Assembly (NCBI RefSeq): GCF_003018255.1
Contig: NZ_CP027440.1
Source of the DNA: Escherichia coli
Lineage (GTDB): Bacteria; Pseudomonadota; Gammaproteobacteria; Enterobacterales; Enterobacteriaceae
Length of the DNA: 64,000 nt
Reading direction: 5' to 3' (one strand)
The first letter of the stretch is position 1. Each line of letters starts with the position of its first letter. The position numbers and the translations under genes were made by a program. The notes under the pieces were generated by a model. That model saw only the letters and a program-made list of their open reading frames with translations, did not search any database and was not told the DNA's origin. Positions 1-47,901 of this stretch are shown here, piece after piece.

Positions 1-11
1 GGGAGTTTCGT

Positions 12-1160: not shown

Positions 1161-1163
1161 TTC

Positions 1164-2210: not shown

Positions 2211-2219
2211 GGTCGTTCC

Positions 2220-3236: not shown

Positions 3237-3314
3237 AATTCGCTCCATTAGGCTTATGGTATGAAATAACCATAGCATAACAAAGATGCGAAAAGTGTGA
3301 CATGGAATAAATTA
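3237..3314 (-). promoter_or_regulatory. gal operon promoter region (P1/P2, CRP site)
   Basis: Minus-strand sequence TTTATTCCATGTCACACTTTTCGCATCTTTGTTATGCTATGGTTATTTCATACCATAAGCC directly upstream of the galE ATG matches the classical galP1/P2 region. Confidence 0.75.
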
Positions 3315-3330
3315 GTGGAATCGTTTACAC
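3315..3330. promoter_or_regulatory. GalR/GalS external operator OE
   Basis: gtggaatcgtttacac is the reverse complement of GTGTAAACGATTCCAC, upstream of the gal promoters. Confidence 0.7.
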
Positions 3331-3439
3331 AAGAATTTAGCCGTTTTTTATGCGCCATTAATGGATTATAAAACAGAGGGTTTATGAATGATTGAGCTTT
3401 TTATCTGAAAAAAGTCGCGGTTTCATGCCTGGATGCGTC

Positions 3440-3482
3440 GAACTGTAGGCCGGAGAGGGCGCTTAGGCCGCCTCCGGTACAG
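3440..3482. repeat. GC-rich REP-like palindromic element / possible modF terminator hairpin
   Basis: gtaggccggagagggcgcttaggccgcctccggtac forms an imperfect palindrome just downstream of the modF stop. Confidence 0.4.
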
Positions 3483-3496
3483 TCAGCATTACCGAC

Positions 3497-4969
3497 TCAG
3501 TTTATTTTTGTCAGCGCATAGCGATAAAAGTCACCGTCCGGCACGAACTCAAGACGATGGGTAATACAGGCAGGCGCATCTTCAGCATGGTGCGAAACAA
3601 ACAACAATTGCGTTTCACCTTCGCTAATCAGCACATCAACAAACCGGCGGATAAGCTGGCGATTGAGCGGATCAAGCCCCTGTAGTGGTTCATCGAGAAT
3701 AAGCAACGTCGGATGTTTCACCAGCGCGCGGACGATCAGCGCCAGACGCTGCTGTCCCCAGGAAAGACTATGGAACGGAGCGTCAGCCGTGCGTTTATCA
3801 ATGCCGAGAATATCCAGCCACTGCTGCACCAGTTTTTGCTGGCGATCCGAAACGGCCTGATAAATGCCAATCGAATCAAAATAGCCAGAAAGGATCACAT
3901 TACGCACGGTAGTGCTGACCCGGTAATCCAGATGCAAACTACTGCTGACGTAACCGATATGCTTTTTGATATCCCAGATGGTTTCGCCGCTGCCGCGACG
4001 TCGTCCGAAAAGCGTCAAATCGTTGCTGTAACCTTGCGGATGATCGCCAGTAATCAGGCTTAATAACGTCGATTTTCCCGCGCCATTTGGCCCGACAATT
4101 TGCCAGTGCTCGCCTGGATTCACCTGCCAGCTAAGGTTATTAAGAATGGGGCGATCGTTATAAGAAACCACGCCGTTGTTCAGCACAATGCGCGGTTCGT
4201 TGGCGGGTAAGGCGTGACGTGCTGAAGGTTCATCCGGCTCCGGCAGTTGCACACCTTCAAGCTGTTCGCTATGTGCCAGTTGCGCGACGAGTGCTTGCTG
4301 GAGCAGTTCCTCTTTAGCGCCCGTTTCCGCTAACGTACAATCCGCCAGCACGCCAGCAAACTGGACAAATTCCGGGATCTCATCGAAGCGATTGAGCACC
4401 AGTACCAGAGTAATACCGGACTGATGTAACGAGGCGAGTAGCTCAGCCAGCTGCTGACGTGAGGCAACATCCAGGCCATCGAACGGCTCATCAAGAATCA
4501 ACAAGTCAGGCTCCGACATCAGCGCCTGACACAGCAGGGTTTTTCGCGTCTCGCCAGTGGAAAGGTATTTAAAGCGTCGGTCGAGGAGGGCGGTAATACC
4601 GAACTGCTGCGCCAGTTGCATGCAACGCGGTGCATCCTTTACTTCATCCTGAATGATTTCAGCCGTGGTACGCCCGGTGTCATCTTCGCCAGGGCCGAGC
4701 ATATCGGTGTTATTCCGCTGCCATTCGTCGCTGACGAGCTTTTGCAATTGCTCGAAGGAGAGACGAGTGATGTGGGAAAACTGGCTTTGCCGTTCACCTT
4801 TCAAAAGCGGAAGTTCCCCCGCCTGCGCGCGGGCCAGCGCCGATTTCCCGCTTCCATTCGAACCGACAAACGCCCAACTATCACCCGCGTTTAACGTTAG
4901 CTGAGGCAATTGCAGCGTTTTTGTGTCGCTAAGACGAAACGTGCCTTGCAAAATTTGCAACGATGACAT
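3497..4969 (-). CDS. modF: ABC-type ATPase with two ATP-binding cassettes (ModF)
   Basis: ORF trimmed to MSSLQILQGTFRLSD (490 aa); two Walker A motifs (GSNGSGKS and GPNGAGKS); adjacent to modE. Confidence 0.9.
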   Translation of the reverse strand: MSSLQILQGTFRLSDTKTLQLPQLTLNAGDSWAFVGSNGSGKSALARAQAGELPLLKGERQSQFSHITRLSFEQLQKLVSDEWQRNNTDMLGPGEDDTGRTTAEIIQDEVKDAPRCMQLAQQFGITALLDRRFKYLSTGETRKTLLCQALMSEPDLLILDEPFDGLDVASRQQLAELLASLHQSGITLVLVLNRFDEIPEFVQFAGVLADCTLAETGAKEELLQQALVAQLAHSEQLEGVQLPEPDEPSARHALPANEPRIVLNNGVVSYNDRPILNNLSWQVNPGEHWQIVGPNGAGKSTLLSLITGDHPQGYSNDLTLFGRRRGSGETIWDIKKHIGYVSSSLHLDYRVSTTVRNVILSGYFDSIGIYQAVSDRQQKLVQQWLDILGIDKRTADAPFHSLSWGQQRLALIVRALVKHPTLLILDEPLQGLDPLNRQLIRRFVDVLISEGETQLLFVSHHAEDAPACITHRLEFVPDGDFYRYALTKIN

Positions 4970-5036
4970 TTTATATCCCATTTTGTGCAGCGATTACTGA
5001 CAGGGATACGTGTTTCATAACAAATTGTCAACACGC

Positions 5037-5825
5037 TTAGCACAGCGTGGCGATAATCACGCTGTCGGCATTAAAGTAGGCCGTGACATTCTGTCCTTGC
5101 TGAAGAGAAGTCGCTTCATTTACCGGCACTGTGGCGCACAGTGTTTGCCCGTCGGGTAGCGCCATTAATACTTCGCACTGCTCTGCGCCGCGCTCAATAT
5201 GGCTAATAATACCCGGTAATTGGTTGTCGGCGTTTTGTGCGACCGCTTCGTCCTGAGTAATGCCTACCCACGGCGCTTTTAGTAATATCAACACTTCTTT
5301 GCCTTCATCCAGCCCCAGACGCGCGCCGCTTTGTGCGGTAATTGCGACTTTCAGGCGTGTTTTTCCGTCAGCCAGTAAGACATCAACATGCTGTTGAACG
5401 TCATCATGATTGCGGGCGGTGATGGTGCCAAACCATTGGTTACGGGCGCTGGTTTGCAGTGAAAAACGTGAGATCGCGGCCAGCAGGCTGTTCAGCGGCA
5501 GGGCGTCATCGTCACTTAACACATCGAAGGCTTTTTGCTGGATTTGCGCCAGTAAGTCATAGAGCTGAATCAGTCGCTGACCATAGCGGGTCAGTACTGC
5601 GCCGCCTCCACCTTTACCGCCTGTTGCGCGCTCAACCAGAATATGCTCACTTAACTGATTCATCTCGTTAATGGCATCCCATGCGCTTTTATAGCTGATA
5701 CCGGCATCTTTCGCTCCCTGGCTAATGGAACCGGAAAGCGCAATGTGTTTTAGTAGCGAAATGCGGCGCGGGTCGGCGAATAATTTTTGTTGGAGCTTAA
5801 GGGTGAGAAGGATTTCGGCCTGCAT
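5037..5825 (-). CDS. modE: molybdate-responsive transcriptional regulator ModE
   Basis: 262-aa ORF MQAEILLTLKLQQKLFADPRRISLLKHIALSGSISQGAKDAGISYKSAWDAINEMN with N-terminal HTH and C-terminal Mop repeats. Confidence 0.95.
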   Translation of the reverse strand: MQAEILLTLKLQQKLFADPRRISLLKHIALSGSISQGAKDAGISYKSAWDAINEMNQLSEHILVERATGGKGGGGAVLTRYGQRLIQLYDLLAQIQQKAFDVLSDDDALPLNSLLAAISRFSLQTSARNQWFGTITARNHDDVQQHVDVLLADGKTRLKVAITAQSGARLGLDEGKEVLILLKAPWVGITQDEAVAQNADNQLPGIISHIERGAEQCEVLMALPDGQTLCATVPVNEATSLQQGQNVTAYFNADSVIIATLC

Positions 5826-5935
5826 AACAATATCCTGGAAAAAGTCTTATTGTGACGGAAAACGAACGCCACGCAAAGCTGACCGCACAAAAGGGGAGTG
5901 CTTTTCTTTGCTTAGCGGTTAGAATAGTCTCATGA

Positions 5936-6103
<168 letters not shown>

Positions 6104-6111
6104 ATCCCTGA

Positions 6112-6140
6112 ATGCCCGCTTAGTCGGGCATTTCTTTTTC
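6112..6140 (+). terminator. rho-independent terminator after acrZ
   Basis: Hairpin atgcccg-cttagt-cgggcat followed by ttctttttc. Confidence 0.7.
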
Positions 6141-6225
6141 TCAACCTCCTGCTTTTCCTGCCGATATTTTTTCTCATCTACCTCACAAAGGTTAGCAATA
6201 ACTGCTGGGAAAATTCTGAGTTAGC

Positions 6226-6249
6226 CGTTATATTGTCGCCTACATAACG
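6226..6249. promoter_or_regulatory. ModE operator at the modA promoter
   Basis: cgttaTATATtgtcgccTACATaacg fits the TATAT-N7-TAYAT ModE motif about 20 bp upstream of the modA start. Confidence 0.7.
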
Positions 6250-6268
6250 TTAGATTAAGGGGTTACCA

Positions 6269-7042
6269 ATGGCTCGTAAATGGTTGAACTTGTTTGCCGG
6301 GGCGGCACTCTCTTTCGCTGTTGCTGGCAATGCACTGGCAGATGAAGGGAAAATCACGGTGTTCGCCGCCGCATCACTGACTAACGCAATGCAGGACATT
6401 GCTACGCAGTATAAAAAAGAGAAAGGCGTGGATGTGGTTTCTTCTTTCGCTTCGTCATCTACTTTGGCCCGTCAGATTGAAGCGGGTGCGCCTGCGGATC
6501 TGTTTATTTCTGCCGATCAGAAATGGATGGATTATGCGGTTGATAAAAAAGCGATCGATACGGCTTCGCGCCAGACACTGCTCGGCAATAGCCTGGTCGT
6601 TGTAGCACCGAAAGCCAGCGAGCAGAAAGATTTCACCATCGACAGCAAAACCAACTGGACTTCGCTGCTGAATGGCGGTCGTCTGGCGGTTGGCGATCCG
6701 GAACATGTTCCCGCTGGCATTTATGCAAAAGAAGCACTGCAAAAACTGGGCGCATGGGATACGCTCTCCCCGAAACTGGCTCCGGCGGAAGATGTTCGTG
6801 GCGCGCTGGCGTTGGTCGAACGCAATGAAGCGCCGCTGGGTATTGTTTACGGTTCTGACGCAGTTGCCAGCAAAGGGGTAAAAGTGGTTGCCACCTTCCC
6901 GGAAGATTCGCATAAAAAAGTGGAATATCCGGTTGCTGTTGTGGAAGGGCATAACAATGCGACGGTGAAAGCATTTTATGATTATCTGAAGGGACCGCAG
7001 GCTGCGGAAATCTTTAAACGTTACGGATTTACAACCAAGTAA
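6269..7042 (+). CDS. modA: molybdate ABC transporter periplasmic binding protein
   Basis: 257-aa ORF with signal peptide MARKWLNLFAGAALSFAVAGNALA; stop overlaps the modB start (ATGA). Confidence 0.96.
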   Translation: MARKWLNLFAGAALSFAVAGNALADEGKITVFAAASLTNAMQDIATQYKKEKGVDVVSSFASSSTLARQIEAGAPADLFISADQKWMDYAVDKKAIDTASRQTLLGNSLVVVAPKASEQKDFTIDSKTNWTSLLNGGRLAVGDPEHVPAGIYAKEALQKLGAWDTLSPKLAPAEDVRGALALVERNEAPLGIVYGSDAVASKGVKVVATFPEDSHKKVEYPVAVVEGHNNATVKAFYDYLKGPQAAEIFKRYGFTTK

Positions 7043-7731
7043 TGATACTGACCGATCCAGAATGGCAGGCGGTTTTACTAAGCCTGAAAGTTTCTTCCCT
7101 GGCTGTGCTGTTTAGCCTGCCGTTTGGGATCTTTTTTGCCTGGTTACTGGTGCGTTGCACGTTTCCGGGCAAAGCTCTGCTCGACAGCGTACTGCATCTA
7201 CCGCTGGTGTTACCGCCCGTGGTCGTCGGTTACTTATTATTAGTTTCGATGGGACGGCGCGGATTTATCGGTGAACGTCTGTATGACTGGTTTGGCATTA
7301 CCTTCGCCTTTAGCTGGCGCGGCGCGGTTCTCGCTGCCGCCGTCATGTCGTTTCCGCTGATGGTGCGGGCAATTCGTCTGGCGCTGGAAGGGGTTGATGT
7401 CAAACTGGAACAGGCCGCAAGAACACTGGGTGCCGGGCGCTGGCGCGTTTTCTTTACTATCACGTTACCGCTGACCTTACCGGGCATTATTGTTGGTACG
7501 GTACTGGCTTTTGCTCGTTCTCTCGGTGAGTTTGGTGCAACCATCACCTTTGTGTCGAACATTCCTGGTGAAACGCGAACCATTCCTTCTGCCATGTATA
7601 CCCTGATCCAGACCCCCGGCGGGGAAAGTGGAGCGGCGAGACTGTGCATTATTTCTATTGCACTGGCGATGATCTCCCTGTTGATTTCAGAATGGCTGGC
7701 CAGAATCAGCCGTGAACGGGCGGGGCGCTAA
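7042..7731 (+). CDS. modB: molybdate ABC transporter permease
   Basis: 229-aa hydrophobic ORF with the ABC permease EAA-like loop; between modA and modC. Confidence 0.95.
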
Positions 7732-7733
7732 TC

Positions 7734-8792
7734 ATGCTGGAACTGAATTTTTCCCAGACGTTGGGCAACCATTGCCTGACCATTAATGAAACGCTGCCCG
7801 CCAATGGCATCACTGCTATCTTTGGCGTCTCCGGTGCCGGAAAAACTTCGCTGATTAACGCCATCAGTGGACTGACGCGCCCGCAAAAAGGGCGGATTGT
7901 CCTCAATGGGCGGGTACTAAATGATGCCGAAAAAGGTATCTGCCTGACGCCGGAAAAGCGTCGCGTTGGCTATGTTTTTCAGGATGCGCGGCTGTTCCCG
8001 CATTACAAAGTGCGTGGCAATCTGCGCTACGGCATGGCGAAAAGTATGGTCGATCAGTTCGATAAGCTGGTGGCGCTTTTAGGCATTGAACCGTTGCTTG
8101 ACCGTTTACCAGGCAGCCTGTCCGGAGGTGAAAAACAGCGCGTGGCGATTGGTCGGGCTTTGCTGACAGCACCGGAATTGCTGTTGCTGGATGAACCGCT
8201 GGCGTCACTGGATATTCCGCGTAAACGCGAACTGTTGCCTTATCTGCAACGGCTGACACGGGAAATCAACATTCCGATGTTGTATGTCAGCCATTCGCTG
8301 GATGAGATCCTCCATCTGGCAGACAGAGTGATGGTACTGGAAAACGGTCAGGTGAAAGCCTTTGGCGCGCTGGAGGAAGTGTGGGGCAGTAGCGTGATGA
8401 ATCCGTGGCTGCCGAAAGAGCAACAAAGTAGCATTCTGAAAGTGACGGTGCTTGAGCATCATCCGCATTACGCGATGACCGCGCTGGCGCTGGGCGATCA
8501 GCATTTGTGGGTCAATAAGCTGGACGAACCGCTGCAAGCTGCGCTACGCATCCGCATTCAGGCTTCCGATGTCTCGCTGGTTTTACAACCGCCGCAGCAA
8601 ACCAGCATTCGTAACGTATTGCGGGCAAAAGTGGTTAATAGTTATGACGACAACGGCCAGGTGGAAGTGGAGCTGGAAGTCGGCGGTAAAACGCTGTGGG
8701 CGCGTATCAGCCCGTGGGCCAGGGATGAACTGGCGATCAAACCTGGCCTGTGGCTGTATGCGCAAATTAAAAGTGTGTCGATAACCGCCTGA
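7734..8792 (+). CDS. modC: molybdate ABC transporter ATP-binding protein
   Basis: 352-aa ORF with Walker [18 protein letters not shown] signature and a C-terminal Mop-like domain. Confidence 0.95.
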
Positions 8793-9611
8793 TTAAATCA
8801 GGTGGCTATAAATGAACTGGGCAATGCTGTCGGTGGTGTTATCACCAATCACAATGTTGGCGCGCGCTTTTACTGCGTCATCGGCGTTGCCCATCGCCAC
8901 GCCTGTACCAGCGGCTTCCAGCATACTAATATCATTGAAGTTATCGCCGAAGGCCACGACGTTTTCCATCGACCAGCCTTGCGCCTCAACCCATTTCGTC
9001 AAACGTTTACCTTTGCTGTTGCCGCCGCGTGCAATATCAACCTGATCGTGCCAGGACCATTCACACTCCAGTCCCAGTTCATGTTCGACATGCTTACCAA
9101 AATGCTGCAATTGCGGCAGGTCATCGTGCGTCAGGGCGAACTTCCATACGGCGTTAACTTGTTGCGCCGTTTCAGCCAGAGAAGCGACTTGTGTGAAAGT
9201 CGGACGCTGTTCCGGCGGCAGGGTTTGCGCCCAGTTAGACGTGCGAATGACATGTCCGGTCGGGTGCTCATAGACCATTGCATCATCGACATACATCAGA
9301 CCGTGAATGTGGTGTTCATTCAGCATCTCAATGAGTTGCAGGGCTTTATTAACGGGCATTGGGTCCGCTTCCAGCACTGTTTTTGCATGATAATCATACA
9401 AATAGGTGCCATTACAGCAAATAGCAGGTGTATCCAGCGCCAGCGCCTGATAAAAAGGATGAATAGCGACGTGATGGCGACCTGTGACGATGATTAATTG
9501 ATAGCCTGCTTCGCGAGCGCGGGCCAGGGCTTCTATCGATGATGGAAGCAAGGTCTTTTTCGGGGTCAATAAGGTGCCGTCTAAGTCGAGAGCAATCACG
9601 CGTGTGGTCAT
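8793..9611 (-). CDS. ybhA: HAD-superfamily phosphatase (pyridoxal phosphate phosphatase YbhA)
   Basis: ORF trimmed to MTTRVIALDLDGTLL (HAD motif I DxDGT), 272 aa. Confidence 0.9.
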   Translation of the reverse strand: MTTRVIALDLDGTLLTPKKTLLPSSIEALARAREAGYQLIIVTGRHHVAIHPFYQALALDTPAICCNGTYLYDYHAKTVLEADPMPVNKALQLIEMLNEHHIHGLMYVDDAMVYEHPTGHVIRTSNWAQTLPPEQRPTFTQVASLAETAQQVNAVWKFALTHDDLPQLQHFGKHVEHELGLECEWSWHDQVDIARGGNSKGKRLTKWVEAQGWSMENVVAFGDNFNDISMLEAAGTGVAMGNADDAVKARANIVIGDNTTDSIAQFIYSHLI

Positions 9612-9729
9612 GGCGTATTCCAGATTAAGGTTAAGAATTTTCGTCTGCGCGAATGGTACACCGATACCACTATCGGACAAAATTCTGCGTTTTAATTCAG
9701 CATTCACCGCCAAAAGCGACTAATTTTAG

Positions 9730-10761
<1,032 letters not shown>

Positions 10762-10771
10762 CCGCTGATTT

Positions 10772-10800
10772 ACCCGGCGCAGTCTCTTCTGCGCCGGTGT
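10772..10800. terminator. bidirectional terminator hairpin between convergent pgl and ybhD
   Basis: acccggcgcag-tctcttc-tgcgccggtgt inverted repeat between the two stop codons. Confidence 0.6.
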
Positions 10801-10801
10801 A

Positions 10802-11755
10802 TTAACCTATCTCCTGTAACGCATGTCTCTGGCGTTCGACGATATTGGTCCACAAATTGTCTTTATCGTCAGTCCACAAATTAATCAGCAAGGCAAAAAA
10901 GCGTTCAGCTGCCGGAGAAAGCACGGCATCTTTGCGGCGAATAATCCCCAATGTCCGACGTATAACCGGTTCCACCAGCGGGATACCAATAATCGAAGAA
11001 TAGGGCGCATGGGGCATTGCCAGACCAGGAAGCGCCGAAATCCCCAGTCCCGCCTCCACCAGCCCTAATGACGTCGAAAGATGACGCACTTCGTAAAACC
11101 AGTCCAGCTTCCAGGGCTTGTCGGCTAGCTGTTGTTCTATCAATAGTCGGTTGCCGCTGGAGGAGCGTACGCCAATCATTTTGTAACCCACTAACTCCTG
11201 CCATTCTACAAGCTGCTTTTTGGCCAATGGATGGTCACGCCGACAGGCCAGCACGAACGGCTCGTTGACCAGTGGGGTAAAATCAATGGATGAATTTGTG
11301 ACGTTGTTCATGTTTATGCCAAAGTCTGATTCGTTACACAGCACCGATTCCATGCAATTATTCGTGCCTTGTTCCAGAATCCGCACTTTAATATTGGGAT
11401 ACAGCTCATTAAATTTACCGATTGCCAGCGGTAAAAAATAAAATACTGCGGTCGGAATACACGCTAACGTCACCATACCACGATGATAAGCATTCATATC
11501 ACGAATATTAAAAAGCGTTTCATCGAATTTTTTTATTAATTCCCGCGCCTCCGGGAGCAACCTTTTTCCTGCTTTTGTTAACGTAACCTTGCGAGTTGTA
11601 CGCTCAAATAGTTGAATGTGTAAATCTTCCTCCATCTTTTTTATTCTTCGCGTTAATGCAGGTTGCGTAATATTGAGTAATTTAGCAGCATTGTTAAATG
11701 AACTGGACTCTGCCAGTATGACAAATGCCTTCATACTTGATAATTCATGCTTCAT
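10802..11755 (-). CDS. ybhD: LysR-family transcriptional regulator
   Basis: ORF trimmed to MKHELSSMKAFVILAESSSFNNAAKLLNITQPALTRRIKKMEEDL (LysR HTH), 317 aa; divergent from ybhH. Confidence 0.88.
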   Translation of the reverse strand: MKHELSSMKAFVILAESSSFNNAAKLLNITQPALTRRIKKMEEDLHIQLFERTTRKVTLTKAGKRLLPEARELIKKFDETLFNIRDMNAYHRGMVTLACIPTAVFYFLPLAIGKFNELYPNIKVRILEQGTNNCMESVLCNESDFGINMNNVTNSSIDFTPLVNEPFVLACRRDHPLAKKQLVEWQELVGYKMIGVRSSSGNRLLIEQQLADKPWKLDWFYEVRHLSTSLGLVEAGLGISALPGLAMPHAPYSSIIGIPLVEPVIRRTLGIIRRKDAVLSPAAERFFALLINLWTDDKDNLWTNIVERQRHALQEIG

Positions 11756-11938
11756 TATTACTCCGGAAAATGGAAGCGACGATTTTGGGTGACTGGCAGT
11801 TAAAAATTTTACCTGCATTTAGCCAACTTAAATTAATGAAAAAATGTTATTAATCGTTGAGCTAAAGTCATTAGAGATGCTTTGCCCTTAATGTAACCAT
11901 ATCGCAATAAGTTATGTTTTTAAATTGAGGGCATTATT

Positions 11939-12991
11939 ATGAAAAAAATACCCTGCGTGATGATGCGAGGTGGAACCTCGAGGGGCGCGTTCCTGTTAGC
12001 GGAACATCTACCCGAAGATCAAACGCAGCGCGATAAAATATTGATGGCAATTATGGGTTCCGGTAACGATCTGGAAATTGACGGTATTGGCGGCGGTAAT
12101 CCGCTGACCAGTAAAGTCGCCATTATTAGCCGCTCCAGCGATCCGCGTGCAGATGTCGATTATCTGTTTGCTCAAGTTATCGTCCATGAGCAACGTGTCG
12201 ATACCACGCCTAACTGCGGCAATATGCTGTCTGGCGTTGGGGCATTCGCCATTGAAAATGGTTTGATTGCAGCGACTTCGCCAGTTACCCGCGTACGTAT
12301 CCGCAACGTCAATACGGGTACGTTTATCGAAGCTGATGTGCAAACGCCAAATGGTGTTGTCGAGTACGAGGGTAGCGCCAGAATTGACGGCGTACCGGGT
12401 ACTGCCGCACCGGTTGCGCTCACTTTCCTGAATGCCGCCGGAACGAAAACCGGAAAAGTCTTCCCGACGGATAATCAGATTGATTATTTTGACGATGTCC
12501 CGGTGACCTGTATCGATATGGCGATGCCAGTTGTCATTATTCCTGCTGAATATCTGGGAAAAACAGGCTATGAATTACCGGCAGAGCTGGATGCCGACAA
12601 AGCATTATTAGCCAGCATTGAATCTATCCGTCTACAAGCGGGTAAAGCAATGGGCTTAGGCGATGTCAGTAATATGGTTATCCCTAAACCTGTACTTATT
12701 TCTCCAGCGCAGAAAGGCGGGGCAATTAATGTGCGTTATTTTATGCCGCATTCTTGCCATCGCGCTTTGGCGATAACCGGTGCTATTGCTATTTCCTGTA
12801 GTTGTGCATTGGAAGGCACCGTCACCCGACAAATCGTCCCTTCTGTAGGATACGGCAATATCAATATTGAACACCCCAGTGGTGCGCTCGACGTTCATTT
12901 AAGTAATGAAGGTCAGGATGCCACGACGTTACGCGCATCTGTTATTCGGACGACAAGAAAAATATTTTCCGGTGAAGTTTATCTTCCCTGA
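11939..12991 (+). CDS. ybhH: PrpF/AcnD-accessory family putative isomerase
   Basis: 350-aa ORF MKKIPCVMMRGGTSRGAFLL, typical PrpF-like N-terminus. Confidence 0.88.
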   Translation: MKKIPCVMMRGGTSRGAFLLAEHLPEDQTQRDKILMAIMGSGNDLEIDGIGGGNPLTSKVAIISRSSDPRADVDYLFAQVIVHEQRVDTTPNCGNMLSGVGAFAIENGLIAATSPVTRVRIRNVNTGTFIEADVQTPNGVVEYEGSARIDGVPGTAAPVALTFLNAAGTKTGKVFPTDNQIDYFDDVPVTCIDMAMPVVIIPAEYLGKTGYELPAELDADKALLASIESIRLQAGKAMGLGDVSNMVIPKPVLISPAQKGGAINVRYFMPHSCHRALAITGAIAISCSCALEGTVTRQIVPSVGYGNINIEHPSGALDVHLSNEGQDATTLRASVIRTTRKIFSGEVYLP

Positions 12992-13066
12992 AAAATTTTG
13001 TTGTCGTGATAATGACAATCAATAAAGGAATTCTGTATGAGTCATACAGAAAGAACAGGATATTAA

Positions 13067-14500
13067 ATGAATAAAAAATCGTTATGGAAGCTAATTCTGA
13101 TATTAGCGATCCCATGTATTATTGGCTTTATGCCAGCTCCGGCAGGATTAAGCGAACTGGCGTGGGTGCTTTTTGGTATTTACCTGGCGGCCATTGTGGG
13201 GCTGGTTATCAAGCCTTTCCCGGAACCTGTCGTACTGTTAATTGCCGTCGCCGCATCGATGGTAGTGGTGGGTAACTTATCAGGTGGGGAATTTAAAACC
13301 ACCGCCGTATTAAGCGGTTACTCTTCCGGTACCACCTGGCTGGTGTTTTCTGCGTTTACTTTAAGCGCCGCGTTTGTAACCACAGGCTTAGGTAAACGTA
13401 TTGCCTATCTGCTGATTGGTAAAATTGGTAGCACTACCCTGGGTCTGGGTTACGTTACGGTATTTCTCGATCTGGTACTGGCTCCGGCAACACCGTCTAA
13501 CACCGCGCGTGCGGGCGGCATCGTGTTACCGATCATCAACAGCGTGGCAGTGGCTTTGGGATCAGAACCGGAAAAAAGTCCGCGTCGTGTTGGACATTAC
13601 CTGATGATGTCCATTTACATGGTCACTAAAACCACCAGCTATATGTTCTTTACCGCAATGGCGGGGAACATTCTGGCGCTGAAAATGATCAACGACATTC
13701 TGCACCTGCAAATTAGCTGGGGTGGATGGGCGCTGGCCGCTGGATTGCCGGGTATCATTATGCTGCTGGTCACCCCGCTGGTGATTTACACCATGTATCC
13801 GCCAGAAATTAAGAAGGTGGATAACAAAACCATCGCCAAAGCGGGCCTTGCCGAACTGGGACCGATGAAAATCCGCGAAAAAATGCTGCTCGGTGTCTTC
13901 GTGCTGGCGCTGCTGGGCTGGATTTTCAGTAAGTCACTGGGGGTTGATGAATCCACCGTGGCAATCGTTGTTATGGCGACTATGCTGCTGCTGGGTATCG
14001 TTACCTGGGAAGACGTGGTTAAAAATAAAGGCGGCTGGAATACCTTAATCTGGTACGGCGGTATTATCGGCTTAAGCTCCTTATTATCGAAAGTTAAATT
14101 CTTTGAATGGTTAGCTGAAGTCTTTAAAAATAACCTGGCATTTGATGGTCACGGTAACGTTGCTTTCTTCGTTATTATTTTCCTCAGCATCATCGTGCGT
14201 TATTTCTTCGCTTCCGGTAGTGCCTATATCGTTGCTATGTTACCTGTATTTGCCATGCTGGCGAACGTCTCCGGCGCACCGTTAATGTTAACCGCGCTGG
14301 CACTGTTGTTCTCTAACTCCTATGGCGGCATGGTTACTCACTATGGCGGCGCGGCAGGTCCGGTCATCTTTGGCGTGGGTTACAACGATATTAAATCCTG
14401 GTGGTTGGTCGGTGCGGTACTGACGATATTAACCTTCCTGGTGCATATCACCCTCGGCGTGTGGTGGTGGAATATGCTGATCGGCTGGAACATGCTGTAA
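13067..14500 (+). CDS. ybhI: DASS-family (divalent anion:Na+ symporter-like) transporter
   Basis: 477-aa polytopic membrane ORF MNKKSLWKLILILAIPCIIGFMPAP; follows ybhH. Confidence 0.88.
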   Translation: MNKKSLWKLILILAIPCIIGFMPAPAGLSELAWVLFGIYLAAIVGLVIKPFPEPVVLLIAVAASMVVVGNLSGGEFKTTAVLSGYSSGTTWLVFSAFTLSAAFVTTGLGKRIAYLLIGKIGSTTLGLGYVTVFLDLVLAPATPSNTARAGGIVLPIINSVAVALGSEPEKSPRRVGHYLMMSIYMVTKTTSYMFFTAMAGNILALKMINDILHLQISWGGWALAAGLPGIIMLLVTPLVIYTMYPPEIKKVDNKTIAKAGLAELGPMKIREKMLLGVFVLALLGWIFSKSLGVDESTVAIVVMATMLLLGIVTWEDVVKNKGGWNTLIWYGGIIGLSSLLSKVKFFEWLAEVFKNNLAFDGHGNVAFFVIIFLSIIVRYFFASGSAYIVAMLPVFAMLANVSGAPLMLTALALLFSNSYGGMVTHYGGAAGPVIFGVGYNDIKSWWLVGAVLTILTFLVHITLGVWWWNMLIGWNML

Positions 14501-14502
14501 AT

Positions 14503-14628
14503 ATACTCGTCATACTTCAAGTTGCATGTGCTGCGTCTGCGTTCGCTCACCCCAGTCACTTACTTATGTAAGCTCCTGGGGATTCACTCGCTTGTCGCCT
14601 TCCTGCAACTCGAATTATTTAGAGTATA
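14503..14628. repeat. ERIC/IRU element (enterobacterial repetitive intergenic consensus), complete 126-bp copy
   Basis: Contains cgctcaccccagtcacttactt (reverse complement of the ERIC2 primer) and atgtaagctcctggggattcac (ERIC1R), bounded by tatactcgtcatac and agagtata. Confidence 0.9.
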
Positions 14629-14658
14629 TCCATTTATTATCTTTCTGCGCACTTCACG

Positions 14659-16943
14659 GTGCGCAGATATCTGGAGCATTTGATGATCAAGTTATCTGAA
14701 AAAGGCGTGTTTCTCGCCAGCAATAACGAAATAATTGCCGAAGAACATTTCACCGGCGAAATAAAAAAAGAAGAAGCAAAAAAAGGCACTATTGCCTGGT
14801 CTATTCTCTCTTCTCATAATACGTCCGGAAATATGGATAAACTTAAAATTAAGTTTGATTCATTAGCCTCTCACGATATTACCTTTGTTGGTATTGTACA
14901 GACCGCTAAAGCGTCCAGTATGGAACGTTTCCCGCTGCCGTATGTGCTGACCAACTGCCATAACTCACTCTGTGCTGTGGGCGGCACCATTAACGGTGAT
15001 GACCATGTTTTTGGTTTATCGGCGGCCCAGCGTTATGGCGGTATTTTTGTGCCACCGCATATTGCGGTCATCCATCAATATATGCGTGAAATGATGGCGG
15101 CGGCGGCAAAATGATCCTCGGGTCAGACAGCCATACCCGTTACGGTGCGTTAGGGACAATGGCGGTTGGCGAGGGCGGCGGCGAGTTGGTAAAACAGCTG
15201 CTTAATGACACCTGGGATATCGACTATCCGGGCGTGGTTGCGGTGCATCTGACCGGAAAACCTGCGCCGTATGTGGGGCCGCAGGATGTGGCGCTGGCTA
15301 TCATCGGTGCCGTGTTCAAAAACGGTTACGTCAAAAACAAAGTGATGGAGTTCGTAGGTCCCGGTGTTGCAGCGCTCTCTACCGATTTCCGTAACAGCGT
15401 TGACGTGATGACCACTGAAACGACCTGTTTAAGTTCTGTCTGGCAAACCGATGAAGAAGTCCATAACTGGCTGGCGCTGCACGGTCGCGGCCAGGATTAC
15501 TGCCAACTTAACCCTCAACCAATGGCGTACTACGATGGCTGCATCAGCGTTGATTTAAGCGCCATCAAACCAATGATTGCGCTGCCATTCCACCCGAGCA
15601 ACGTGTATGAAATCGACACGCTGAACCAGAACCTGACCGACATTCTGCGTGAGATTGAAATTGAGTCCGAACGCGTGGCGCACGGTAAAGCCAAACTCTC
15701 GCTGCTGGATAAAGTGGAAAATGGTCGCCTGAAAGTGCAGCAGGGGATTATCGCGGGCTGTTCTGGCGGTAACTACGAAAACGTCATCGCGGCGGCGAAT
15801 GCGCTGCGCGGTCAATCCTGCGGCAACGATACCTTCTCATTGGCGGTTTACCCGTCATCACAGCCGGTGTTTATGGATCTCGCCAAAAAAGGTGTGGTAG
15901 CAGATTTGATTGGCGCAGGCGCAATCATCAGAACCGCGTTCTGCGGCCCATGCTTTGGTGCGGGCGATACGCCAATCAACAACGGTTTGAGTATTCGCCA
16001 CACCACGCGTAACTTCCCGAACCGCGAAGGCTCTAAGCCAGCTAATGGGCAGATGTCAGCGGTGGCGTTGATGGACGCTCGTTCTATCGCTGCAACTGCG
16101 GCAAACGGTGGCTATTTAACCTCTGCCAGCGAACTCGATTGCTGGGACAACGTGCCGGAGTACGCCTTCGATGTAACGCCGTATAAAAATCGCGTCTATC
16201 AAGGCTTTGTGAAAGGGGCGACCCAGCAACCGCTGATCTACGGACCGAACATCAAAGACTGGCCGGAATTGGGCGCGCTGACTGACAATATCGTCCTCAA
16301 AGTGTGCTCGAAGATCCTCGACGAAGTCACCACCACCGACGAACTGATTCCTTCCGGTGAAACCTCTTCTTATCGTTCAAATCCGATTGGTCTGGCGGAG
16401 TTTACCCTGTCACGCCGCGATCCCGGTTATGTTGGCAGAAGTAAAGCGACTGCTGAGCTGGAAAATCAGCGTCTGGCGGGGAATGTCAGCGAGCTGACAG
16501 AGGTGTTTGCGCGCATTAAGCAGATTGCTGGTCAGGAGCATATTGATCCGCTGCAAACTGAAATTGGCAGCATGGTCTATGCGGTGAAACCAGGCGATGG
16601 TTCTGCGCGTGAGCAGGCGGCGAGCTGCCAGCGTGTGATTGGCGGTCTGGCGAATATTGCCGAGGAATACGCGACTAAACGCTACCGTTCTAACGTCATC
16701 AACTGGGGGATGTTACCGCTGCAAATGGCGGAAGCACCAACGTTTGAAGTGGGGGATTACATTTACATCCCTGGCATTAAAGCGGCGCTGGATAATCCTG
16801 GAACGACGTTTAAAGGTTATGTGATCCATGAAGATGCACCGGTAACGGAGATTACGCTCTATATGGAAAGTCTGACTGCTGAAGAGCGCGAGATTATCAA
16901 GGCGGGTAGTTTGATTAACTTCAATAAAAACCGTCAGATGTAA
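14659..16943 (+). pseudogene. ybhJ: aconitase-family putative hydratase YbhJ, apparently interrupted by a frameshift
   Basis: Two ORF pieces in different frames: 14659..15114 (151 aa, ending [10 protein letters not shown]) and 15111..16943 (610 aa, [15 protein letters not shown] with aconitase DSHT motif). The downstream frame is open only from 15090, so the break lies in the gcggcggcggc tract at 15090..15112. Confidence 0.75.
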
Positions 16944-16954
16944 AAAGCGCCATG

Positions 16955-17070
<116 letters not shown>

Positions 17071-17083
17071 TAGTTAACAGCTC

Positions 17084-18367
17084 CTACTTCTTCGCCTCTG
17101 CAACCACTTTGCTACCCACGCCGCGGTTATTGTATTCCCACATGCGGTTGTAGTTAGTGTCATTCAGATTGCGCTGTACTTCGTCGTTATCATCAACGCT
17201 GCCGGTGTTACCCGCGAATGGACGATTGGAAATCACCGCATCAGCCCACGGTTTGGCTGTGTTAAAACCTTCGTTGATGGCGCTATCACGGATCACCACC
17301 TGACCGTTGGTATTGGCATCAACATCCAGCGAGCGGCCCAGTTGCGCCACGCCATCACCGGAAGCATTGAAACGACTGTTTACGGCGAGGAAACCGTAGT
17401 AAATGTTGGACAGCGTAGCCGGTGCAAACACATACGCTTCTTGCTGAGTACGTGAGTTCACCACGCGGAATTCGGTATTATCGAACACCACTGCGCCGCG
17501 ACCAGAAACGATATCCACATCCCCTTCAATGTAGCTGTTGGTCACCAGCGTACGCGGCTGACGATTCGTTTCCAGACGGTTCTGCACACCGCTGTTGGTG
17601 ACAAAGAAGGTGTTCTGACGACCGAGAATGTTAACGTTGTTAATCTGTACCTGGTCACCATCAGTACGCAGTGCCACCGCCGGATGGTTACCCGCATCTA
17701 CGCTATCGCCCAGCGTGTTTTCGATGGTCAGGTTTTGCAGTTGCAGTCCATTGTTTTGTGACCAGAAGACCGCAGAGCAGAGAACGCCGATACTGTCGCT
17801 GCGTTTGCTCTGGCAGCTATCGTACATATACCACGCTGGTTTACCTGGCATATATTTGCCGCGCGGGTTGACGTCGTGACGCCAGTCGGCGGGGCTCATG
17901 CCCCCATCAAGGGAAAGCCCAATCTTCACATCAATCGGTTTTTCACCTGTACCGTACAGAGTAATTCCACCCGGAGCGGCAGGGACATATACCGTTCCCT
18001 GATACTCACCAGGCATCACGGCAATATACTGGCGCTTGTTGGTACGCTTGATAATTGCCGCATCTACCGCCGCCTGAATCGTGGTATGCGTTACACCTTG
18101 AGTACCCGCCGGGCCGACAACAAAGTCAGGTTGTGCAGGCAGGGTAATCGGGGAAGGATTCCACGCTGCCGCACCTGGTGTCAGGGATGCAAAATAGTGT
18201 TGAGCATCGAAATTCTGCGCTTCTTTTGCCGACAGAATCGGGCGAGAAGAGGTACCAGGCGCGGTTTGATCAGAAGGACGTTGATCGGGCGGTGTTGAGC
18301 TACAGGCGGTCAGCGTCACGCCAAAAGCCAATGCCAGCGCCAGACGGGAAACTGAAAATGTGTTCAC
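17084..18367 (-). CDS. ybhC: outer-membrane lipoprotein, pectinesterase-fold acyl-CoA thioesterase-like
   Basis: 427-aa ORF with lipoprotein signal MNTFSVSRLALALAFGVTLTAC. Confidence 0.9.
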   Translation of the reverse strand: MNTFSVSRLALALAFGVTLTACSSTPPDQRPSDQTAPGTSSRPILSAKEAQNFDAQHYFASLTPGAAAWNPSPITLPAQPDFVVGPAGTQGVTHTTIQAAVDAAIIKRTNKRQYIAVMPGEYQGTVYVPAAPGGITLYGTGEKPIDVKIGLSLDGGMSPADWRHDVNPRGKYMPGKPAWYMYDSCQSKRSDSIGVLCSAVFWSQNNGLQLQNLTIENTLGDSVDAGNHPAVALRTDGDQVQINNVNILGRQNTFFVTNSGVQNRLETNRQPRTLVTNSYIEGDVDIVSGRGAVVFDNTEFRVVNSRTQQEAYVFAPATLSNIYYGFLAVNSRFNASGDGVAQLGRSLDVDANTNGQVVIRDSAINEGFNTAKPWADAVISNRPFAGNTGSVDDNDEVQRNLNDTNYNRMWEYNNRGVGSKVVAEAKK

Positions 18368-18518
18368 AGGTTGCTCCGGGCTATGAAATAGAAAAATGAA
18401 TCCGTTGAGGCCTGCTTTTTTATACTAACTTTAGCGAAACGGGAAGGTAAAAAGACAAAAAGTTGTTTTTAATACCTTTAAGTGATACCAGATGGCTTTG
18501 CGCCATCTGGCAGAGTAA

Positions 18519-26670: not shown

Positions 26671-26770
26671 GCCTGATGTGCTACGCTTATCAGGCCTACA
26701 TGATCTCTGCAATACATTGAATTAGCGCGGTTTGTAGGCCGGATAAGGCTTTCACGCCGCATCCGGCATA
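26671..26770. repeat. REP/BIME cluster
   Basis: gcctgatgtgctacgcttatcaggcctac and gtaggccggataaggctttcacgccgcatccggca between convergent uvrB and ybhK. Confidence 0.85.
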
Positions 26771-26824
26771 AACAACGCGCACTTTGTCTTCAATAGGAAG
26801 CCGGAATTTTCCTTCGGCTTTCCG

Positions 26825-27793
<969 letters not shown>

Positions 27794-27930
27794 TTAACCT
27801 GCCAATATTGAGGATACAAACTATTTTCTTCTACCTCTAAAGGACGATGTACGCTATGCCTTCCTGATGATGTATATCAAAGTAAAACCGCCATTTTCCC
27901 TTATTCTGTAGCGAAATAGCACGATCATGA

Positions 27931-27954
27931 CGCTATATACATGATTACATAGCG
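27931..27954. promoter_or_regulatory. ModE-type operator upstream of moaA
   Basis: cgcTATATacatgatTACATagcg fits TATAT-N7-TACAT and is palindromic at its ends. Confidence 0.55.
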
Positions 27955-27994
27955 AAAGTGTGGATGGTAAAAATCTCATTTACACGCTAGTATC

Positions 27995-28125
27995 GGCTTA
28001 ACCACTAAACACTCTAGCCTCTGCACCTGGGTCAACTGATACGGTGCTTTGGCCGTGACAATGCTCGTAAAGATTGCCACCAGGGCGAAGGAAGAAATGA
28101 CTTCGCCTCCCGTATCTGGAAAGGT
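27995..28125 (+). ncRNA. molybdenum cofactor (Moco) riboswitch / moaA leader
   Basis: Structured GC-rich leader directly 5' of moaA (ctctgcacctgggtcaactgatacggtgctttggccgtgacaatgctcgtaaagattgccaccagggcgaaggaag...); the Moco RNA motif is established at this position in E. coli. Boundaries approximate. Confidence 0.55.
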
Positions 28126-28129
28126 GTAC

Positions 28130-29119
28130 ATGGCTTCACAACTGACTGATGCATTTGCGCGTAAGTTTTACTACTTGCGCCTGTCGATTACTGATGTGTG
28201 TAACTTTCGTTGCACCTACTGCCTGCCGGATGGCTACAAACCGAGCGGCGTCACCAATAAAGGCTTTCTTACCGTCGATGAAATTCGCCGGGTTACGCGC
28301 GCCTTTGCCAGTCTGGGCACCGAAAAAGTGCGCCTGACAGGCGGTGAGCCGTCTTTACGCCGCGACTTTACCGATATCATCGCCGCTGTGCGGGAAAACG
28401 ACGCTATCCGCCAGATTGCGGTCACCACCAATGGTTACCGTCTGGAACGCGATGTGGCGAACTGGCGCGATGCGGGACTTACTGGCATCAACGTCAGCGT
28501 TGATAGCCTTGACGCTCGCCAGTTTCATGCCATTACCGGGCAGGATAAATTCAACCAGGTCATGGCAGGGATCGATGCTGCATTTGAGGCCGGTTTTGAG
28601 AAGGTCAAAGTCAATACCGTGCTGATGCGTGATGTTAATCATCATCAGCTCGACACCTTTCTGAACTGGATCCAGCATCGCCCTATCCAGCTGCGTTTCA
28701 TCGAATTGATGGAAACGGGTGAGGGCAGCGAGCTCTTCCGTAAGCATCACATCTCTGGTCAGGTTCTGCGTGACGAGCTACTGCGTCGCGGCTGGATCCA
28801 CCAATTACGTCAACGCAGCGACGGTCCCGCGCAAGTCTTTTGTCATCCGGATTACGCCGGAGAGATTGGCCTTATCATGCCGTATGAAAAAGACTTCTGC
28901 GCCACTTGCAACCGCCTGCGCGTTTCCTCCATTGGTAAACTCCATCTCTGCCTGTTTGGTGAAGGCGGCGTTAACCTGCGCGATCTGCTGGAAGACGATA
29001 CCCAGCAACAGGCGCTGGAAGCGCGTATTTCAGCGGCGCTGCGGGAGAAGAAACAGACCCATTTCCTGCATCAAAACAACACCGGTATTACGCAAAACTT
29101 ATCGTACATTGGCGGCTAA
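28130..29119 (+). CDS. moaA: GTP 3',8-cyclase (radical SAM) MoaA
   Basis: ORF trimmed to [31 protein letters not shown] (CxxxCxxC), 329 aa. Confidence 0.95.
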
Positions 29120-29140
29120 AACGTCAAAAGGAGAGATCAG

Positions 29141-29653
29141 ATGAGTCAGGTAAGCACTGAATTTATCCCGACCCGTATTGCTATTCTTACGGTTTCTAAT
29201 CGTCGTGGTGAAGAAGACGATACCTCCGGTCACTATCTGCGCGATTCGGCGCAGGAAGCGGGCCATCACGTTGTCGATAAAGCCATTGTGAAAGAAAACC
29301 GCTACGCTATTCGCGCTCAGGTATCTGCGTGGATCGCCAGCGACGATGTACAAGTGGTATTGATTACGGGTGGTACTGGCCTGACGGAAGGTGATCAGGC
29401 TCCCGAAGCGCTGCTGCCGTTGTTCGACCGTGAAGTTGAAGGTTTTGGTGAAGTGTTCCGGATGTTGTCGTTTGAAGAGATTGGCACCTCAACGTTGCAA
29501 TCTCGTGCGGTAGCGGGCGTCGCTAACAAAACGCTGATTTTCGCCATGCCGGGTTCGACCAAAGCGTGCCGCACCGCGTGGGAAAATATCATCGCGCCGC
29601 AGCTCGATGCCCGTACACGTCCATGCAATTTCCATCCACATTTGAAGAAATAA
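29141..29653 (+). CDS. moaB: MoaB (MogA-like molybdopterin-binding protein)
   Basis: 170-aa [30 protein letters not shown]. Confidence 0.93.
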
Positions 29654-29655
29654 GT

Positions 29656-30141
29656 ATGTCGCAACTGACCCATATCAACGCCGCTGGCGAAGCACACATG
29701 GTGGATGTCTCCGCCAAAGCGGAAACCGTGCGTGAAGCGCGGGCGGAAGCCTTTGTCACCATGCGCAGCGAGACGCTGGCGATGATTATTGATGGTCGCC
29801 ACCACAAAGGCGACGTATTTGCCACTGCGCGTATCGCCGGTATTCAGGCGGCAAAACGCACCTGGGATCTGATCCCGCTGTGTCACCCGCTGATGCTCAG
29901 CAAAGTTGAAGTCAATTTACAGGCCGAGCCGGAGCACAATCGGGTACGTATAGAAACCTTATGCCGCCTGACCGGGAAAACCGGTGTCGAAATGGAAGCG
30001 TTAACCGCGGCCTCCGTGGCGGCGCTGACCATTTATGACATGTGCAAAGCGGTGCAAAAAGATATGGTAATTGGTCCGGTACGTTTGCTGGCGAAGAGCG
30101 GCGGCAAGTCGGGTGACTTTAAGGTGGAAGCGGATGATTAA
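29656..30141 (+). CDS. moaC: cyclic pyranopterin monophosphate synthase MoaC
   Basis: ORF trimmed to [21 protein letters not shown] (161 aa). Confidence 0.93.
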
Positions 30142-30379
30142 AGTTCTTTTTTTCGCCCAGGTGCGCGAGTTGGTGGGAACAGATGCAACCGAAGTGGCTG
30201 CGGATTTCCCAACCGTTGAAGCGTTACGCCAACATCTGGCTGCGCAGAGCGATCGCTGGGCGCTGGCGCTGGAAGATGGCAAATTGCTGGCTGCCGTCAA
30301 CCAGACGCTGGTGAGTCTTGACCATCCGCTGACTGACGGCGACGAAGTGGCTTTCTTCCCGCCGGTAACCGGAGGTTAA
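30134..30379 (+). CDS. moaD: molybdopterin synthase sulfur-carrier subunit MoaD
   Basis: ORF trimmed to [17 protein letters not shown] ... PPVTGG (81 aa, C-terminal GG); start overlaps the moaC stop. Confidence 0.92.
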
Positions 30380-30380
30380 G

Positions 30381-30833
30381 ATGGCAGAAACCAAAATTGT
30401 TGTCGGCCCGCAGCCATTCAGCGTAGGAGAAGAGTATCCGTGGCTGGCGGAGCGTGATGAAGACGGTGCGGTAGTCACCTTTACCGGTAAGGTGCGCAAC
30501 CATAACCTTGGCGACAGCGTCAAAGCATTAACCCTCGAACACTATCCGGGGATGACTGAAAAAGCACTGGCAGAAATTGTCGATGAAGCGCGTAACCGCT
30601 GGCCGCTGGGGCGCGTCACGGTGATTCACCGCATCGGGGAATTATGGCCGGGAGATGAAATCGTTTTTGTCGGTGTCACCAGTGCGCATCGCAGCAGTGC
30701 GTTTGAAGCCGGGCAGTTTATTATGGATTATCTCAAAACCCGCGCACCGTTCTGGAAGCGTGAAGCCACGCCGGAAGGCGACCGCTGGGTTGAAGCTCGG
30801 GAGAGCGATCAGCAGGCGGCAAAACGCTGGTAG
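30381..30833 (+). CDS. moaE: molybdopterin synthase catalytic subunit MoaE
   Basis: 150-aa ORF MAETKIVVGPQPFSVGEEYPWLAERDEDGAVVTFTGKVR. Confidence 0.94.
   Translation: MAETKIVVGPQPFSVGEEYPWLAERDEDGAVVTFTGKVRNHNLGDSVKALTLEHYPGMTEKALAEIVDEARNRWPLGRVTVIHRIGELWPGDEIVFVGVTSAHRSSAFEAGQFIMDYLKTRAPFWKREATPEGDRWVEARESDQQAAKRW

Positions 30834-46811: not shown

Positions 46812-47901
<1,090 letters not shown>

Follow-up and report, generated by a model that had tools for sequence, protein, structure and literature searches.

A ModE-type operator and a Moco riboswitch in the control region ahead of moaABCDE in Escherichia coli

The operon moaABCDE encodes the enzymes that carry out the early steps in making the molybdenum cofactor (Moco), and its locus raises the question of which signals control it and where in the DNA ahead of moaA they act. 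We addressed this in one stretch of 64,000 nucleotides of E. coli DNA, called here the window, and all coordinates are counted from its first letter. The original prediction for this region was that of a ModE-type box followed by a structured, GC-rich leader with a Moco riboswitch, giving two layers of control. Our analysis indicates that the region is very probably the native control region of moaABCDE, with FNR acting at a distal promoter (S2), ModE acting at a proximal promoter (S1), and a Moco riboswitch hiding the Shine-Dalgarno sequence (SD), and with CsrA and Rho as additional inputs.

The local gene order is uvrB, yvcK (ybhK, on the minus strand) and moaABCDE, and the MoaA protein matches TIGR02666 with 369.7 bits (cutoff 284). 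A region of 801 bp around the site showed 100% identity to many complete E. coli genomes and was present in 5424 of 5426. Coordinates of K-12 MG1655 were converted to window positions with an offset of 788914, taken from the moaA start (817044 = 28130). Compared to MG1655, the yvcK-moaA intergenic region has 3 substitutions in 396 bp (27850, 27862 and 27998), and both the box and the paired core of the aptamer are untouched; because the intergenic region differs at these positions only, experiments performed on K-12 transfer directly to the window. The comparative set consisted of 80 moaA loci, one genome per species, from Enterobacterales, Vibrionales, Aeromonadales and Pasteurellales; the counts below refer to 81 sequences. 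The genes and sites considered first are the following.

5037..5825, minus strand: modE, whose product responds to molybdate and would bind at both boxes (annotated in an identical strain).
6226..6249, no strand assigned: second ModE-type box, CGTTATATTGTCGCCTACATAACG, found by motif search and consensus score; it ends 20 nt before the modA ATG (6269).
27867..27880, no strand assigned: candidate FNR site ATGAT-GTAT-ATCAA, 9/10 to TTGAT-N4-ATCAA, ~40 bp upstream of S2.
27902..27913, plus strand: distal promoter S2, with a candidate -10, TATTCT, at 27902..27907 and its start at ~27913.
27931..27954, no strand assigned: ModE-type operator, the imperfect palindrome CGCTATATA-CATGAT-TACATAGCG (motif, consensus score, inverted-repeat search and conservation).
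27965..28000, plus strand: proximal promoter S1, with putative -35 TGGTAA at 27965..27970 (3/6), putative -10 TAGTAT at 27988..27993 (4/6) and its start at 28000.
28130..30833, plus strand: moaABCDE, the regulated operon (open reading frames and the annotation of a strain identical here).

Several features of the wider locus were also recorded. In the annotation strain H3 a prophage precedes ybhB, and colinearity with the window is lost before ~18.5 kb; the mod region was annotated from a second, identical strain. Strain 20Ec-P-124, which is identical to the window around moaA, has an IS1 and a lambdoid prophage on the upstream side of ybhB (positions 1..18,200 of our sequence L083), at a place that we take to be the lambda attachment region; the window, compared at ~18,000..18,500, has neither of them. 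The distance from modA to moaA in the window is 21.86 kb, presumably close to the spacing in K-12. The uvrB-yvcK intergenic region (26692..26773) gave sub-threshold Rfam matches to ES036/CssrF (23 bits) and naRNA4/CssrE (31 bits), two families that we take to be REP-type repeats, and its counterpart in E. albertii (L003, 63..104) scored above the Rfam threshold with 43 bits.

The palindrome had been predicted about 175 bp upstream of moaA, and it was found there, its last base lying 176 nt before the ATG at 28130. The core of this 24-bp palindrome is TATATACATGATTACAT (TATAT-N7-TACAT) at 27934..27950, and its two arms (27931-27939 and 27946-27954), 9 nt each, 89% complementary and 6 nt apart, form an inverted repeat; the 400-bp intergenic region contains no other of short range. 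ModE binds the consensus CGnTATATA-N6-TATATAnCG, which encloses the kind of motif named in the original prediction; the modA copy and 52 orthologous sites corroborate this consensus. Scored against CGNTATATA-N6-TATATANCG, the moaA and modA sites reach 15/16 and 14/16, respectively, and the next best site in the 64 kb reaches 12. The simpler pattern TATAT-N7-TAYAT occurs twice in the 64 kb (6229..6245 and 27934..27950) against 0.10 occurrences expected, and two or more occurrences were obtained in 0 of 100 shuffles. The first of these two matches lies in the copy at modA (6226..6249), as predicted. The third-best ModE-like match, CGCTACATAACTCGCATCATATCG at 47156..47179 (12/16), falls within the hcxB coding region and is probably due to chance.

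The 24 bp of the moaA box are identical in K-12, and a box scoring at least 14/16 was found in 52 of the 81 sequences, nearly all of them from Enterobacterales. Alignment of these 52 sites revealed that the CG...CG flanks and both half-sites are kept and that the 6-bp spacer is free. A -10-like hexamer (GCTAsTAT) lies 33-34 bp 3' of the box in 41 of the 52 species, with TGG kept at the -35 position. A constant distance from box to aptamer was expected as well and was ruled out, the range being 65-170 bp. Since the spacing from box to -10 is constant and that from box to aptamer is not, the box belongs to the promoter, and it is the leader between the start and P1, the closing stem of the aptamer, that varies. 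Citrobacter, Enterobacter, Serratia, Yersinia and others (L004, L006, L009-L013 and further loci) have a hairpin-forming insert of ~20-50 nt between an AACCAC start motif and P1; Escherichia is without it, so that the S1 transcript starts directly at P1. In all sampled loci of Vibrio, Aeromonas and Pasteurellaceae the box score stayed at 12 or below. Most of the loci from Vibrio, Photobacterium, Aeromonas and related genera (L058-L067, L070-L077, L079 and L082) have a moaA riboswitch, and no E. coli-type ModE box was found within 420 bp upstream in this group; molybdate control at these loci would be either absent or exerted through a different site.

The position of the box relative to transcription could be fixed from published primers. 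The '1 to 145' cloning primer of PMC2408646 begins with AACCACTAAAC, which places the +1 of S1 at 28000, and the moaA forward primer of PMC7815308 (Adams et al. 2021) has its first base there too. This puts the ATG of moaA at +131, in agreement with the '131 nt stretch' of PMC2408646. Counted from S1, the box has its centre at -57.5, a short way ahead of the -35 region, which is not the textbook position of a class I activator. S1 is reported to be activated by molybdate-bound ModE, and molybdate-dependent binding of ModE here has been reported for K-12, with the location of the site given as approximate (PMC2408646). Compared with the ModE operator of the K-12 proximal moa promoter (Anderson et al. 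2000 via PMC2408646), the box has the same 24 bp at the same place upstream of the S1 -35, and no difference was found. We assigned the exact bases of this putative operator from the motif, its conservation and the approximate position given in PMC2408646.

A consensus promoter scan of 27750..28200 found no promoter; because the hexamers of both moa promoters lie below its thresholds, this absence is not evidence against them. With such hexamers, S1 is consistent with a weak, activator-dependent promoter. The distal promoter S2 lies at -87 relative to S1 (position from the Fig. 2 legend) and is FNR-dependent (PMC2408646), and its transcripts would carry the box at +19..+42. The word TAyyCT, which corresponds to the candidate -10 of S2, keeps its distance to the box in ~24 species. 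An FNR-like site of at least 8/10 is found at the E. coli offset from the box in 24 of the 52 box-bearing species (Enterobacteriaceae), and one within 150 bp upstream of the box in 35 of the 52, against a null of 8.6%. Across the window the FNR pattern is unspecific (6 matches against 2.3 expected), and it is therefore position and conservation that support the candidate site at moaA.

The second box offers a comparison for the first. It has the same CGnTATAT-N-TAYATAnCG palindrome as the moaA box and is presumably read by the same regulator, the product of modE (5037..5825), a gene that is intact and full-length in the window (NF007957, 508 bits; cutoff 369). The two sites differ in position, the modA box ending 20 nt before the ATG and the moaA box being centred at -57.5, where ModE activates. 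Binding of ModE at modA represses molybdate uptake. The left half of the modA box, TATATT, is a -10-like word; if this putative -10 is the one used, overlap with the box means that ModE occupancy should occlude the promoter and repress it. The wording in PMC2408646 is instead that ModE upregulates modABCD. A consensus promoter scan of 6100..6300, covering modA, returned no promoter. A terminator-like hairpin with a T-run was seen at 6110..6133, just after acrZ and ~90 bp upstream of the modA box.

Downstream of S1, the leader could be assigned to a known RNA family, and its parts are listed below.

27998..28142, plus strand: Moco riboswitch, match to RF01055, with consensus pairing over 28000..28136 (Rfam, PGAP and covariation).
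28008..28014, plus strand: 5' strand of P1, AACACUC, with U28013 bulged (Rfam alignment).
28017..28053, plus strand: P2, with the internal bulge CCUGGG/UACGG at the tetraloop-receptor position; 8 of its 11 proximal pairs change on both sides.
28055..28080, plus strand: P3; 4 of 5 pairs change on both sides, with 95% of cells paired.
28083..28108, plus strand: P4, with a GAAA tetraloop at 28094..28097 and a GGA motif at 28090..28092; 8 of 11 pairs change on both sides.
28109..28119, plus strand: P5 (CC...GG), followed by a GGA motif at 28118..28120; invariant in 21 of 21 sequences.
28121..28132, plus strand: expression platform, with the SD AAGGUG at 28121..28126 in the 3' strand of P1 (28123..28128) and the moaA AUG at 28130..28132.
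28138, plus strand: abundant RNA 3' end of K-12 (MG1655 817052; Term-seq, PMC7815308 supplementary tables).

A covariance-model scan was positive: RF01055 matches 27998..28142 with 103.4 bits (gathering threshold 36, E = 1.2e-24, model positions 1-135), and no other Rfam family exceeds its threshold in the window. In identical strains, RefSeq/PGAP places a 'molybdenum cofactor riboswitch' on exactly this interval. These two results, together with the match to the moaA leader of K-12, which is the experimentally studied representative of the Moco RNA family (PMC2408646), strongly support the predicted riboswitch. The K-12 riboswitch (RF01055; Regulski et al. 2008, PMC2408646) shares with ours the locus, stems P1-P5, the GAAA tetraloop, P3 and the placement of the SD within the 3' strand of P1. 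The two leaders are identical from 27999 to 28145; position 27998 is U here and A in MG1655, precedes the S1 start by 2 nt and takes part in no consensus pair, and the substitution is expected to have no functional effect.

Other details of the prediction fared less uniformly. The interval given for it ends at 28125; the riboswitch is present, but this end cuts the 3' strand of P1, as pairing extends to 28136 and the model match to 28142. The leader proved not to be GC-rich: its GC content is 51.5%, the window averages 51.9%, and the leader exceeds only the promoter DNA upstream of it (38-41% GC). That the leader is structured is upheld by the covariance model and by covariation, but not by thermodynamic folding alone (z = -1.57 for the single-sequence fold of the aptamer). 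In the loci of other species, RF01055 was detected in 20 of 20 tested with 82-103 bits, including one Vibrio and one Aeromonas, and an nhmmer profile found the aptamer in 79 of the 81 sequences, the two without it being L068 (Rosenbergiella gaditana) and L080 (an Actinobacillus MAG).

When the Rfam consensus was mapped onto the leader, P1 was formed by 28008-28012 and 28014 with 28128-28123, and a distal extension paired 28000, 28001 and 28003 with 28136, 28135 and 28133. The presence of P3 defines the 'Moco' subtype and its loss the 'Tuco' subtype, and a GNRA tetraloop is typical of the family (PMC2408646). The 'Tuco' variants, which lack P3, and the Moco RNAs of the terminator type belong to the same aptamer family and share the junction core (PMC2408646); unlike them, the moaA copy has P3, sequesters the SD in P1 and has no terminator stem. 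Using 21 aptamers, RNAalifold recovered P2-P5 unaided, with compensatory changes in 15 of 26 pairs. In the same 21-sequence alignment, 24 Rfam consensus pairs change on both sides, compared to 14.2 ± 2.0 in shuffles (0 of 500 reach 24) and 8-12 in slid controls, and the cells forming a standard pair amount to 80.6%, compared to 75.2% in shuffles and 36-43% in slid controls. In the MAFFT alignment, P1 shows no variation in its 3' strand (GGUGU, the SD) and a register shift in its 5' strand (ACACUC against AACUCC types), and the expression platform GGAAAGGUGU is invariant in 21 species. The Rfam score together with covariation in P2-P4 settles membership of the Moco family.

The internal bulge of P2 (28026..28031 and 28040..28044) differs among lineages, being CCUGGG/UACGG in Escherichia and Citrobacter and having CCUAAG in 11 of the 21 aligned relatives. 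Its variable positions change together, with G..C in Escherichia and C..G in Shimwellia, Pantoea and Morganella, which suggests that in some lineages a base pair may replace the A-A platform of the bulge.

Single-sequence folding was set aside as evidence in either direction, with z = -1.78 for the S2-length leader in addition to the value for the aptamer, and with a minimum free energy (MFE) fold that differs from the consensus. The MFE fold has -42 kcal/mol, compared to -33.2 with the consensus pairs enforced. In it, a 7-bp helix between 28022..28028 (UGCACCU, the 5' strand of P2) and 28122..28128 (AGGUGUA, the SD region) replaces P1 and P2, and 28016..28019 additionally pair with 28132..28135. 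The 3' strand of P2, GGUGC, resembles the SD, GGUGU, and the alternative helix is thus beyond the reach of the covariation test. Because the MFE fold also sequesters the SD, the energy models do not support the simple picture in which absence of ligand means an open SD. This predicted helix may be related to the reported role of CsrA in exposing the SD.

The published experiments, done on effectively identical sequence, supply the transcription starts, the dependence on ModE and FNR, translational repression by Moco, and the effects of CsrA and Rho. The ribosome binding site lies within P1, and folding of the ligand-bound aptamer represses translation; repression was more than threefold and Moco-dependent in a translational fusion driven by a constitutive promoter, and control was altered when the structure was disrupted and restored (PMC2408646). 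CsrA has two binding sites in the aptamer and acts as an activator of translation (PMC7652899). The GGA motifs at 28090..28092 and 28118..28120 are candidates for these sites, an assignment that, like those of the exact FNR site and of the promoter hexamers, is ours. The RNA 3' end at 28138 is 8 nt into moaA and 2 nt past the last consensus pair of P1, which implies a stable RNA of aptamer size, ~139 nt from S1, with two GGA motifs. A fusion with the moaA 5'UTR and ORF is more than twofold up in a rho R66S mutant, and a bicyclomycin-sensitive region at MG1655 817336 corresponds to window position ~28422 (PMC7815308).

Combined with our own observations on the motif, its rarity, its conservation and its spacing to the -10, on the covariance match, on covariation in P2-P4, on the SD within P1 and on the intact modE, these reports lead to the following proposal. 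S2 (~27913), with the FNR-like site ~40 bp upstream, would respond to anaerobiosis, and S1 (28000), with its poor -35, would depend on molybdate-ModE bound at 27931..27954. The 130-nt leader would fold as the five-stem Moco aptamer, in which the 3' strand of the closing stem P1 is the moaA SD. Abundant Moco, or an abundant close derivative, would keep the aptamer folded and P1 shut, so that ribosomes would not load and MoaA would not be made. CsrA on its two aptamer sites would favour translation, and Rho would terminate within moaA. The original idea of two-layer control therefore holds for ModE and for a cofactor-sensing RNA, but 'two' undercounts the inputs, given the published FNR-dependent S2, CsrA and Rho.

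A further idea concerns the relation between the two promoters. The FNR site, the S2 -10, the ModE box and the S1 -10 keep a rigid spacing in Enterobacteriaceae. ModE-molybdate might both activate S1 and act as a roadblock to transcription from S2, thereby switching leaders, and in the longer leader the palindrome would form an RNA hairpin ahead of the aptamer; we regard this as a speculative and improbable addition. Anderson et al. (2000) reportedly studied S1 and S2 separately.

Three other explanations need to be weighed against this proposal. The palindrome could be AT-rich promoter sequence that matches the motif by chance, whether as an UP-like element, as a cryptic -10 or as a site for some other regulator, and the 38-41% GC of the surrounding promoter DNA does make TATA-like words likelier. 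This is extremely improbable, as the two matches in 64 kb exceed the 0.10 expected and both precede molybdenum genes, a score of 14 is reached by only 1 of 4000 shuffled 400-bp upstream regions, and the combination of conserved CG...CG and half-sites with a drifting spacer is the signature of a dimeric protein site rather than of an UP element. Activation of S1 by ModE has also been reported (PMC2408646). The reading as a ModE-type box is thus borne out by the palindrome itself, the copy at modA, the footprint across Enterobacterales, the intact modE and the reported activation. Regarding the leader, the RNA could be structured and conserved without binding Moco, with repression relayed by some protein or by another metabolite of the pathway. 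Ligand binding was out of reach in PMC2408646 because Moco is unstable, the regulating metabolite is still unidentified according to a 2024 paper from a Moco-biosynthesis laboratory (PMC10845959), and neither paper offers a demonstration of binding; our literature search for a structure or ligand binding of the Moco riboswitch found none. CsrA, a protein, does bind within the aptamer (PMC7652899). Against such a relay, the RNA is a riboswitch-like conserved multistem junction that is widespread ahead of Mo and W genes across distant phyla, and mutants in late Moco synthesis were used to narrow down the effector (PMC2408646); no protein factor has been found since 1991, and the junction and P5 nucleotides are invariant in 21 of 21 aligned species. 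We consider the relay improbable and retain direct sensing of Moco or a close derivative as the preferred reading.

The main output of the leader could also be premature Rho-dependent termination instead of a block of translation initiation. The rise of the moaA fusion in the rho mutant speaks for this, as do the bicyclomycin-sensitive region at ~28422 and the abundant 3' end at 28138 (PMC7815308). However, no intrinsic terminator was found in the leader (scan of 27750..28200), for the 3' end at 28138 the Rho score is 1.24, with the call 'No' (PMC7815308), and repression by Moco was seen with translational fusions (PMC2408646). Termination within an untranslated ORF is expected when translation is blocked, so that the Rho effect is better viewed as downstream amplification than as a rival. 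We therefore hold it unlikely, though with a real chance of being right, that Rho provides the main output, and keep the block of translation initiation as the principal one.

Both the moaA box and the riboswitch are already known and annotated, and nothing is added here for E. coli. The comparative by-products are modest: a fixed spacing from the box to the S1 -10 in Enterobacterales, a box that is missing in the Vibrio, Aeromonas and Pasteurellaceae loci examined, most of which keep the riboswitch, and a leader that varies by genus in its length between the transcription start and the aptamer. The moaA region thus serves as a positive control, in that a ModE box and a riboswitch leader were recognisable from raw sequence.
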